This document shows, piece after piece, positions 1 to 2,550 of a stretch of 2,550 bases of DNA; within the stretch, counting starts at the first letter, position 1; every line of letters starts with the position of its first letter. The stretch comes from Escherichia coli (GTDB lineage: Bacteria; Pseudomonadota; Gammaproteobacteria; Enterobacterales; Enterobacteriaceae), in assembly GCF_003334765.1 (NCBI RefSeq), contig NZ_QOWT01000073.1; one strand, written 5' to 3'. The notes beneath the pieces are model-generated. The model had not been told where the DNA came from. It worked only from the letters and a program-made list of their open reading frames with translations, and did not search any database. The translations under genes were made by a program, and so were the position numbers.

Positions 1-1502
1 TTTAATCCGCGATATAACGAAGCTCCCGGAGCTGCGTAAGGTCTTTTTGGGCTTAATATTTGACAAAGGTCATAAGAATTTTTCTTTCCGAGACAGACTG
101 CACGAAGCGCTCTTTCCGCTGTGTTATTGTCCGCCTCCGCCAGACCGTCATCACAGAAGTTGCACAACGCAACCCAGTGCTTCCTGATATACCGGAACGC
201 ATCTCTCAGACGGCATTTTTTCGATAACGTGTGTTCTTTCTCCTGCATCAGCTTATACAGGGAAGTCAGTAGCGGTTTACTCTGCATTTGCCTGACCGCC
301 AGGCGTTCAGACACCGGCAACCCGCGTATTTCGTGCTCAATGGCGTACAGTTCGCCGATTAGTTTCAGTGCTTCTTCCGCCGTCGCGCTTTTGGTACTGA
401 TATATACATCGTGGATTTTGCGCCGCGCATGAGCCCAGCATCCTGCTTCCGTCAACGCGCCGCCTTCACGTTCGGCACTGAACAGCCGATCGTAACCTGC
501 GAACGCATCTGCCTGCAGGATACCCCGGAAGGGACGAAGGTGTTGCTCCGGATGTTTACCCTGATGGTCCGGTGAGTAGGCGAACCAGACCGCCGGAGGT
601 TCTGGCGAACCGGCATTTCGGTCATCCCGGACATACGTCCAGATATATCCTGTTTTCGCCTTCTTCCTGCCCGGTGCCAGTACTTTTACTGGTGTGTCAT
701 CAGTGTGAACCTTGCGGGTGTTCATCACATAACTGTACAGGGCATCATTCAGCGGCGTCATTAACTGGCAGCACGCATCAACCCAGTTGGAGAGTAAGGC
801 ACGGCTCAGTTCGACACCCTGGCGGGCAAAGATTTCACTCTGACGATACAGTGGCAGGTGTTCGCAGTATTTTCCCGTTAACACGCGGGCAAGTAACCCC
901 GGGCCCGCGATACCACGCTCTATCGGACGGGATGGTGCCGGTGCTTCAACGATGCAGTCACATTTTGTACAGGCTTTTTTTACCCGTTCTGTGCGGATCA
1001 CTTTCAGGGCGCTGCTCACCAGTTCCAGTTGTTCTGCACTGACTTCCCCCAGATAATCCAGCTCACCGCCACACTCCGGGCAACAGCTTTCTTCAGGCTC
1101 CAGGCGGTTTATTTCGCGGGGCAGATGCTCCGGTAACGGACGACGATGGCGTGACTGTCGCAACTGGCGGGGAACCTGCGGGTCATCCTCTCGCCCACTG
1201 TAACGATCGCTGTCCTGTTCGCGTTGCTTCAGCAGGGCCTCAGCCTGTTCAACTTCACGACGCAGTTTTTCAGAACGGGTACCGAACAGCATCCGGCGCA
1301 GTTTTTCTATCTGAGCCCGCAGATGTTCTATTTCCCGTTCATCTTCTTCGATCTTTTCTTCGGCACGTGCCAGCACAGAACGCAGGAAGGCCTCCGTCTC
1401 TTCAACCAGACTCAGTTGTTGGTCTTTCTGACGGAGGGCTTCAGCCTGCTCAGAGAGCAACCTTTCCAGCTCTGCGATGCGAATGAGGTATTTCTGACTC
1501 AT
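1..1502 (-). CDS. tnpC: IS66-family DDE transposase TnpC (Orf3), 3'-partial: 500 codons in window, no stop before the window edge
   Basis: ATG is the reverse complement of 1500..1502; I checked every codon in this frame down to position 3 and found no stop. Translation starts MSQKYLIRIAELERLLSEQAEALRQKDQQL (coiled-coil-like), then CPECGGEL...CTKCDC (zinc-finger-like), HTDDTPVKVL and LQADAFAGYDRLF (DDE core), GCWAHARRKIHD, and DNNTAERALRAVCLGKKN near the end. These are hallmark IS66 transposase motifs. Starts 30 bp after the tnpB stop. Confidence 0.9.
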   Translation of the reverse strand, partial: MSQKYLIRIAELERLLSEQAEALRQKDQQLSLVEETEAFLRSVLARAEEKIEEDEREIEHLRAQIEKLRRMLFGTRSEKLRREVEQAEALLKQREQDSDRYSGREDDPQVPRQLRQSRHRRPLPEHLPREINRLEPEESCCPECGGELDYLGEVSAEQLELVSSALKVIRTERVKKACTKCDCIVEAPAPSRPIERGIAGPGLLARVLTGKYCEHLPLYRQSEIFARQGVELSRALLSNWVDACCQLMTPLNDALYSYVMNTRKVHTDDTPVKVLAPGRKKAKTGYIWTYVRDDRNAGSPEPPAVWFAYSPDHQGKHPEQHLRPFRGILQADAFAGYDRLFSAEREGGALTEAGCWAHARRKIHDVYISTKSATAEEALKLIGELYAIEHEIRGLPVSERLAVRQMQSKPLLTSLYKLMQEKEHTLSKKCRLRDAFRYIRKHWVALCNFCDDGLAEADNNTAERALRAVCLGKKNSYDLCQILSPKRPYAAPGASLYRGL

Positions 1503-1532: not shown

Positions 1533-1883
1533 TTACAACATTGTCAGTGAGTTAAGGCGGGATGTTTTTGGCTGACGCCAGTCCAGCTTATCGAGGAGCA
1601 TTACCAGTTGCGAACGGGTAATGGATACCTTGCCGTCACGTACCGCAGGCCAGATAAACTGGCCTTCCTTCAGGCGTTTGGTGAACAGGCACAGACCATC
1701 AGCATCAGCCCAAAGAATTTTAACGGTGTCACCCCGTCGGCCACGGAAGATAAACAGGTGGCCGGAGAAGGGATTATCATTCAGCACATGTTGTACCTGT
1801 TCTCCCAGTCCGTTGAAGGATTTACGCATATCGGTAACGCCGGCAACGAGCCAGATACGGGTACCTGATGGGAGTGAAATCAT
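1533..1883 (-). CDS. tnpB: IS66-family accessory protein TnpB (Orf2), 116 aa
   Basis: ORF-track protein MISLPSGTRIWLVAGVTDMRKSFNGLGEQVQHVLNDNPFSGHLFIFRGRRGDTVKILWADADGLCLFTKRLKEGQFIWPAVRDGKVSITRSQL..., which I recognise as the IS66 Orf2 type common in enterobacterial elements. Size and position between tnpA and the transposase fit. Confidence 0.9.
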   Translation of the reverse strand: MISLPSGTRIWLVAGVTDMRKSFNGLGEQVQHVLNDNPFSGHLFIFRGRRGDTVKILWADADGLCLFTKRLKEGQFIWPAVRDGKVSITRSQLVMLLDKLDWRQPKTSRLNSLTML

Positions 1884-2305
1884 CTTCCCCTCCCGCTCAG
1901 TTCGCGGATCAACACCGTGAGCAGCTCTGGCGATGGATTTTCCAGCGTCATGTTACCGTGACGGAACTCCACCTTGCAGGAACTGGCACTGACTCTGGTC
2001 TGAGTGGAAGTGGATAAAGACGGCGCAATGGCCGCCACAGGTTTTTTCTGCTCATCCGGCGTTATTTCTACAGGTAATAATTCAACGCCAGTGTCAGAAG
2101 AGGTCGTTACCGGAAGACGCCGCGAAACACGCCCTTCGTTCTGCCAGAGCCTGAGCCATTTGAAAATAACATTATCATTGACGCCATTTTCACGTGCAAT
2201 CTGTGCAACACAAGCTCCAGGTTGTGATGCCAGTTCCACCATACGAAGTTTGAATTCATTCGAATAGTTTTTACGAGGTTCTTTTCGCCAGTCCTGTAAT
2301 TCCAT
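1880..2305 (-). CDS. tnpA: IS66-family accessory protein TnpA (Orf1), 141 aa, HTH-like N-terminus
   Basis: ORF-track protein MELQDWRKEPRKNYSNEFKLRMVELASQPGACVAQIARENGVNDNVIFKWLRLWQ...; N-terminal region resembles the helix-turn-helix of IS3 OrfA / IS66 Orf1 proteins. First gene after the repeat; its TGA stop overlaps the tnpB ATG (ATGA at 1880..1883). Confidence 0.8.
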   Translation of the reverse strand: MELQDWRKEPRKNYSNEFKLRMVELASQPGACVAQIARENGVNDNVIFKWLRLWQNEGRVSRRLPVTTSSDTGVELLPVEITPDEQKKPVAAIAPSLSTSTQTRVSASSCKVEFRHGNMTLENPSPELLTVLIRELSGRGR

Positions 2306-2320
2306 ACTTAGATGTCCGTC

Positions 2321-2348
2321 TATATCAGATGGGCGTCTAAGTTACCAA
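2321..2348 (-). promoter_or_regulatory. Possible sigma70-like promoter for tnpA in the leader between the repeat and the tnpA start
   Basis: Minus strand reads TTGGTA (plus 2343..2348) then 16 nt then GATATA (plus 2321..2326). Weak match to consensus, and the resulting leader before the ATG at 2305 would be very short. Speculative. Confidence 0.15.
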
Positions 2349-2365
2349 TTTTCGTCTGATGGCTA

Positions 2366-2390
2366 TATACGGCGGTCAGTTTACGCTTAC
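2366..2390 (-). repeat. Terminal inverted repeat (left end) of the IS66-family element; outer boundary at 2390/2391, inner extent uncertain
   Basis: Plus strand 2371..2390 is ggcggtcagtttacgcttac; its reverse complement begins GTAAGCGTAAACTGAC. The flanking transposase reading frame runs right up to 2391 and then breaks. Length cannot be fixed without the partner repeat. Confidence 0.6.
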
Positions 2391-2550
2391 AAAACGATAG
2401 TGGCTCAGGCTCTCATTTTTCAGCGTTCCCCAGAAGCTTTCCATCGGAGCGTTGTCGTAACAGTTACCTTTACCCATAGAGGCGGATATAAGGGGAATGC
2501 CGGCAGAGCAGCGGCTTGCTGAACGTCAGCGAAAAACGAAACCGCTGTTG
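2391..2550 (-). pseudogene. IS3-family transposase (OrfB, DDE catalytic core) fragment, interrupted by the IS66 insertion; extends beyond the window
   Basis: Minus-strand translation of about 2391..2480 gives GIPLISASMGKGNCYDNAPMESFWGTLKNESLSHYRF. The CYDNA...ESF(W/F)..LK.E pattern, with K seven residues after the catalytic E, is the IS3-family signature. The frame ends exactly at the IS66 repeat junction. An in-frame TGA lies upstream at 2526..2528. Confidence 0.75.

Follow-up and report, generated by a model that had tools for sequence, protein, structure and literature searches.

The closest described relatives of the protein considered here are the transposases of IS66, a large insertion sequence (IS) family (PF13007 + PF13005 + PF03050 + PF13817; NF033517). 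The terminal inverted repeats of this family begin GTAAGCG, and DDE transposases usually carry end-binding domains just ahead of the catalytic core. No solved structure of any IS66 transposase was found, and a PDB sequence search with the transposase TnpC returned zero relatives at E values up to 1. Beta-sliding-clamp binding motifs are reported in IS66 TnpC, at places that include a position upstream of the leucine-zipper (LZ) domain (PMC3971601). Here, we analysed a stretch of 2,550 nucleotides (nt) of Escherichia coli DNA (the window), which contains a truncated tnpC gene of the IS66-family element ISEc43, with emphasis on a cysteine-rich segment of the encoded TnpC. This segment is the standard zf-IS66 domain, presumed to bind zinc, of an IS66-family TnpC, ordinary and already known. 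The window TnpC shares domain order, the four-cysteine (Cys4) pattern and the D/D/E positions with IS66-family transposases generally, and differs from them by its truncation and by C140 and C183, which are lineage-specific extra cysteines.

Identification of the zf-IS66 domain in TnpC

The tnpA, tnpB and tnpC frames of the window all lie on the minus strand. TnpC is encoded by the third of these, which begins with an ATG at 1502..1500 and stays open for 500 codons up to the left window edge. The minus-strand translation of window 954-1085 is CCPECGGELDYLGEVSAEQLELVSSALKVIRTERVKKACTKCDC, letter for letter the segment quoted in the original prediction, and the N-terminal stretch quoted there, LIRIAELERLLSEQAEALRQKDQQL, corresponds to TnpC residues 6-30. 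The domain search that had been proposed as a check was run with Pfam on the 500-amino acid (aa) translation and matched the zinc-finger, leucine-zipper and DDE domains typical of IS66, and NCBIfam NF033517 assigned TnpC to the IS66-family transposases with 397.1 bits (cut-off 180). The features of the gene are as follows.

77..1502, minus strand: truncated ISEc43 tnpC, codons 1-475 of 537 (near-identity to intact TnpC, divergence from residue 476)
954..1085, minus strand: segment CCPEC...CTKCDC, TnpC residues 140-183 (exact translation and residue numbering)
957..1091, minus strand: zf-IS66 (PF13005), residues 138-182 (Pfam E 7.9e-12, full model, 1-46/46)
1082..1080, 1073..1071, 971..969 and 962..960, minus strand: ligand candidates C141, C144, C178 and C181, respectively (conserved cysteines)
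1113..1325, minus strand: LZ_Tnp_IS66 (PF13007), residues 60-130 (Pfam E 1.3e-12)
77..917, minus strand: DDE_Tnp_IS66 (PF03050), residues 196-475, C-terminal edge cut (Pfam E 5.1e-92)
701..699, 509..507 and 116..114, minus strand: candidate catalytic residues D268, D332 and E463, respectively (family conservation)

The DDE_Tnp_IS66 match spans residues 196-477 of the 500-aa translation and covers model positions 1-274 of 284, with the last 10 absent. The DDE_Tnp_IS66_C domain was absent from the window copy in the same Pfam search, which is a sign of a broken IS66 member and not of a non-member. The zinc-finger-like CxxC...CxxC pattern that had been described at residues 140-183 is borne out by the exact translation and by the full-model zf-IS66 match. 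Pfam and NCBIfam also agree with the earlier statement that the zinc-finger and helix features are those expected of an IS66 transposase and are not novel. There is nothing novel in the zinc-finger segment itself; the finding confirms a standard IS66 transposase gene and is of low interest.

Conservation of the cysteines and catalytic residues

Homologues were searched among 1.8 billion cluster representatives at E values up to 0.001, which gave 42,990 relatives. Then, 95 near-full-length members with 32-47% identity were aligned under the intact ISEc43 TnpC, giving an alignment of 96 sequences altogether. C141 was kept in 94 of the 96 family sequences, C144 in 93, C178 in 92 and C181 in 86, and C140 and C183 were not conserved. 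Among the six cysteines of the segment, C141, C144, C178 and C181 are consequently the only conserved ligand candidates, judged from the alignment. The spacing from C141 to C178 was 37 in 57 of the 70 sequences with two CxxC motifs, and the first knuckle was CxC in some family members. Since short CxxC motifs are common, a chance arrangement of functionless cysteines might lie behind the CxxC...CxxC pattern. This was ruled out by the Pfam E value of 7.9e-12 over the whole model, and also by the retention of the four positions in 86-94 of 96 sequences at 32-47% identity, while the neighbouring C140 and C183 were not retained; we regard a chance origin as extremely improbable.

The candidate catalytic residues were conserved in 96/96 (D268), 95/96 (D332) and 94/96 (E463) sequences, and all three are present in the window copy. 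Two residues of the stretch CWAHARR (window 440-429, minus strand), C355 and H358, were invariant (96/96), above any cysteine of the zinc finger; in the catalytic domain they come after the second D and before the E.

Predicted structure and proposed role of the Cys4 module

A model of TnpC was built by AlphaFold2 with the family alignment, and reached a predicted local distance difference test (pLDDT) score of 92.5 and a predicted template modelling (pTM) score of 0.80. The zinc-finger region was predicted with pLDDT 97-98 and comprises a strand (129-134), the C141/C144 knuckle, a hairpin (147-162/165-178), the C178/C181 knuckle and a further strand (184-186). The 33 residues separating the cysteine pairs would form a long two-stranded beta-hairpin, with C141 and C144 just ahead of it, C178 as its last strand residue and C181 after it. 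When the isolated 73-residue segment was modelled alone, the topology was unchanged (pLDDT 88.6), so that two cysteine knuckles bracketing beta-strands were predicted in two independent models. On the basis of these models, the cysteine segment looks like a zinc ribbon rather than a compact classical finger. The zinc-ribbon modules of NrdR, RPB9 and TFIIS are counted among the nearest known systems. What this adds to the earlier description is that the zinc "finger" is predicted as a long hairpin bounded by two cysteine pairs. For the full-length TnpC model as a whole, the closest solved fold was the ISCth4 transposase (PDB 6xgx, 6xg8), with a Foldseek E value of 1.6e-8, probability 1.0 and 382 aligned columns; this transposase belongs to another IS family, IS256, and has just 14-16% sequence identity to TnpC.

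At the N-terminus the model contains one long helix, as follows.

1281..1487, minus strand: one continuous alpha-helix of 69 residues, TnpC residues 6-74 (AlphaFold2, pLDDT ~88-94)

Confidence was low for a second predicted helix (79-98) and for the linker that extends to about residue 128. E, K, R, D, Q, L and A make up 77% of residues 1-100. In a crude home-made test of heptad a/d positions, the best 28-residue window had 75% hydrophobic a/d residues, a value reached by 301 of 1000 composition-preserving shuffles. The region had originally been described as coiled-coil-like and rich in heptads. Its helical part is upheld by AlphaFold2 (6-74) and by the LZ_Tnp_IS66 match (60-130), and the model supports a long amphipathic N-terminal helix, but the heptad periodicity did not exceed that of the shuffles. 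We infer a coiled coil in the TnpC N-terminus and claim the long helix only, because the heptad test was non-significant. Within the predicted helix and upstream of the LZ domain, QLSLV (residues 29-33, window 1418-1404, minus strand) agrees with the clamp-binding consensus Q-L-S-L-F/L at 4 of 5 positions, placed inside the helix and not in a flexible tail.

The domain layout, read against what is generally known of DDE transposases, suggests that a single zinc ion, coordinated by the four cysteines, would stabilise the hairpin. Placement of the transposase at the terminal inverted repeats may be aided by the Cys4 module and by the short helices downstream of it (residues 201-260). Assembly of subunits through the long N-terminal helix would allow synapsis of the two ends before DNA is cut and joined at the D268/D332/E463 site. 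The window copy is a remnant from which no full transposase can be made, and its zinc-finger domain is intact but idle. Experimental tests of the zinc, end-binding or helix roles of IS66 TnpC were not found in the searchable literature. Alternatively, the Cys4 module might have a protein-protein or purely structural role and not bind DNA, for example by bracing a dimer or tetramer or by docking TnpA or TnpB. We consider this main rival the less likely of the two, as the Cys4 domain comes directly before the helices that lead into the catalytic core, where end-binding domains are usually carried, although both roles fit the present evidence. Overall, we consider it very likely that the segment represents zf-IS66 in TnpC, the DDE transposase encoded by the IS66-family element ISEc43.

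Truncation of the ISEc43 tnpC

The window was 99.8% identical to the chromosome of E. coli NCTC9082, the closest genome, where its 10.5-kb context (locus L001) carries tnpC under the label "ISEc43 family transposase, missing C-terminus" given by the Prokaryotic Genome Annotation Pipeline (PGAP). The window copy was compared with the intact ISEc43 TnpC (WP_011666429.1, 537 aa) of E. coli plasmid JE86-ST05_p1. The LZ, zf-IS66 and DDE domains, the tnpA-tnpB-tnpC layout and the left end are common to both copies, which agree at 473 of residues 1-475. The two differences are E202G and C393R, the window copy carrying G202 and R393 where the intact protein has E202 and C393. Both changes are toward the family consensus, and pseudogene decay as their source was rejected since the window has the consensus residue at each position.

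The intact protein has DDE_Tnp_IS66_C at 494-530 (E 5e-15), whereas the window copy is without residues 476-537. The C-terminus is missing because tnpC is interrupted at window 76/77 by ISEc45, an IS110-family element; the other 62 tnpC codons are found beyond the insertion in the closest genome (L001 2442-2630). The lost residues include the end of the DDE domain and 21 positions with at least 70% conservation. The previous report that the C-terminus of TnpC is not intact was therefore right, the last 62 of 537 residues being missing. Its companion claim, that the N-terminal and catalytic parts are intact, is a little too strong for the catalytic part. It agrees with the presence of D268, D332 and E463 and with the consensus-ward direction of both substitutions, but the Pfam DDE model is cut into by the break at 475 (274/284), and the 21 conserved positions and DDE_Tnp_IS66_C are gone. 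The encoded truncated TnpC is very probably inactive.

It was also considered that the truncated TnpC continues to be produced as a regulator, which would bind IS66 ends or full-length subunits and inhibit other copies. The tnpC frame stays open and reads into ISEc45, giving in the closest genome a 522-aa fusion of 475 TnpC residues and a 47-residue tail; the helix, the zinc ribbon and the DDE triad are retained without damaging substitutions, and the upstream tnpA and tnpB are intact, all of which would suit such a product. However, conservation of the lost segment is strong and its fold is confidently predicted as three helices after residue 482, so that the truncated protein may not fold, and PGAP annotates this tnpC copy as a pseudogene. 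A regulatory function is thus improbable, and an inactive protein is the reading we prefer.

Insertion site of ISEc45

The part of ISEc45 that lies in the window, and the target site of the element, are as follows.

1..76 (= L001 4001-4076), plus strand: right end of ISEc45 (IS110 family), last 76 nt (L001 context and junction mapping)
24-bp ISEc45 target site: GAAGAACACGTAATTTTTCTTTCC

The whole element, ~1,445 bp, is present in the closest genome at L001 2632-4076. Its sub-terminal inverted repeats are 10 bp, and window 1-76 contains the sub-terminal repeat AAAGGTCATA. ISEc45 sits after tnpC codon 475, homology to ISEc43 stops at window 77, and the target DNA encodes the conserved TnpC motif GRKN|(F/Y/W)xF.

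To count the insertions, 100 nt of ISEc45 joined to 100 nt of tnpC served as the query in sensitive blastn with coverage of at least 80%. The ISEc45/tnpC junction was found in 607 genomes, compared with 618 E. coli genomes in which the ISEc45 right end is present at 80% coverage or more (~98%, counted per genome and not per copy). The right end occupies ~991 places in all. The IS66 hosts at this junction are annotated as ISEc43, ISEc23 and ISEc22 families. Five ISEc45 copies sampled evenly down the ranking were all (5/5) at the same tnpC position in unrelated contexts. The IS66 hosts differ, one being 88% identical to ISEc43 and another much more divergent. Every junction mapped has AG at its left side and either AA or AG at its right side, which fits the two-base core exchange typical of IS110-family recombination. 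One further copy, in yqhC of E. coli O18:H1 CFSAN067215 (L009), has flanks similar to the tnpC target; therefore it is a sequence that is recognised, rather than IS66 as such. This yqhC copy also has a 117-bp tandem duplication of the right end (L009 1884-2117), which begins at an internal ...AATAAG|AGTTTG resembling the true end ...CATAAG|A. At the left junction in a different IS66 host (L003, ~535-555), the flank GAAGAACATGTAGAACATGTAG is a tandem repeat of GAACATGTA that was unseen at other junctions.

Relatives of ISEc45 were also compared. An element of Enterobacter asburiae with 73% identity to ISEc45 occupies the same codon boundary of a TnpC that is just 65% identical. ISSso6 on an E. 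coli plasmid (L016; recombinase 45% identical) lies just past the 3' end of an IS66 tnpC fragment (residues 40-537), and an element of Agrobacterium pTi1D1609 (L014; recombinase 49% identical) abuts, in the opposite orientation, a TnpC fragment ending near 464; neither is at the exact site. No TnpC fragments were found by tblastn in the flanks of the other four relatives fetched. The recurrent position of ISEc45 in tnpC points to site-specific targeting. The truncation of tnpC would then be not random decay but an apparent targeted insertion of an IS110-family element into the IS66 coding segment with the highest conservation and, if true, a natural case of one mobile element serving as the landing site of another. 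Possible follow-up value lies only in this apparent site-specific insertion, which is outside the coordinates of the cysteine segment.

Possible guide RNA of ISEc45

The 3' non-coding region of ISEc45 (252 nt, L001 3825-4076), which ends with the 76 nt of window 1-76, folded better than its shuffles (z -2.7), with a long closing stem around internal loops. In one internal loop, CACGUA, which equals the left target flank, stands opposite AAAAGAAUU, which is complementary to the right flank in L003. In the predicted fold, this candidate loop (L001 3861-3871 and 3900-3909) resembles the target loop of a bridge or seek RNA, and we hypothesise that ISEc45 is targeted by a guide RNA. Exact k-mer guide-like matches between the 3' non-coding region and the target were only 6-7-mers, equalled by 183 of 300 shuffles. 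ISEc45 copies at different targets carry the identical RNA sequence and thus offer no covariation within E. coli ISEc45. The Enterobacter relative showed only one covarying position, and a right-flank match was not found. An Rfam search over the window and the 10.5-kb context gave no match, and thus no known RNA family on this non-coding region. Reports of ISEc45 targeting IS66 transposase genes, including those on seekRNA and IS66, were not found in the searchable literature, the coverage of which is incomplete. That ISEc45 is a site-specific parasite of IS66 transposase genes in at least four hosts and, through its relative, in Enterobacter, perhaps directed by a structured RNA, is a tentative reading to which we give somewhat less than an even chance.

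Other features of the window

The remaining features of the window are as follows.

1533..1883, minus strand: tnpB, IS66 accessory gene (NCBIfam IS66_TnpB, 117.9 bits, cut-off 50)
1880..2305, minus strand: tnpA, IS66 accessory gene (NCBIfam IS66_ISRel24_TnpA, 83 bits, cut-off 74)
2331..2390, minus strand: ISEc43 left end, beginning GTAAGCGTAAACTG at 2390 (match to the left end of the intact copy, L002)
2391-2477, minus strand: IS3-family transposase gene remnant, 87 nt, MGKGNCYDNAPMESFWGTLKNESLSHYRF (abuts the ISEc43 left end)
2479-2550, plus strand: second, divergent IS66-family tnpC fragment, EADIRGMPAEQRLAERQRKTKPLL (aligns to TnpC residues 388-412)

The stop of tnpA overlaps the start of tnpB (ATGA, read from the sequence), and the gene order tnpA-tnpB-tnpC is that of IS66 elements. 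The ISEc43 left end in the window starts with GTAAGCG as in IS66-type terminal repeats, and the right end is beyond the window. Homology to intact ISEc43 ends at about 2390/2391. ISEc43 may have inserted there into an IS600-like element, as related records annotate IS600 at this place. In the closest genome, the fragment at 2479-2550 bears the annotation of an IS66 transposase that lacks its N-terminus. The locus as a whole is a pile-up of insertion-sequence fragments flanked by espI and iha, and the present assignments help to annotate this mosaic of remnants beside virulence genes in pathogenic E. coli.
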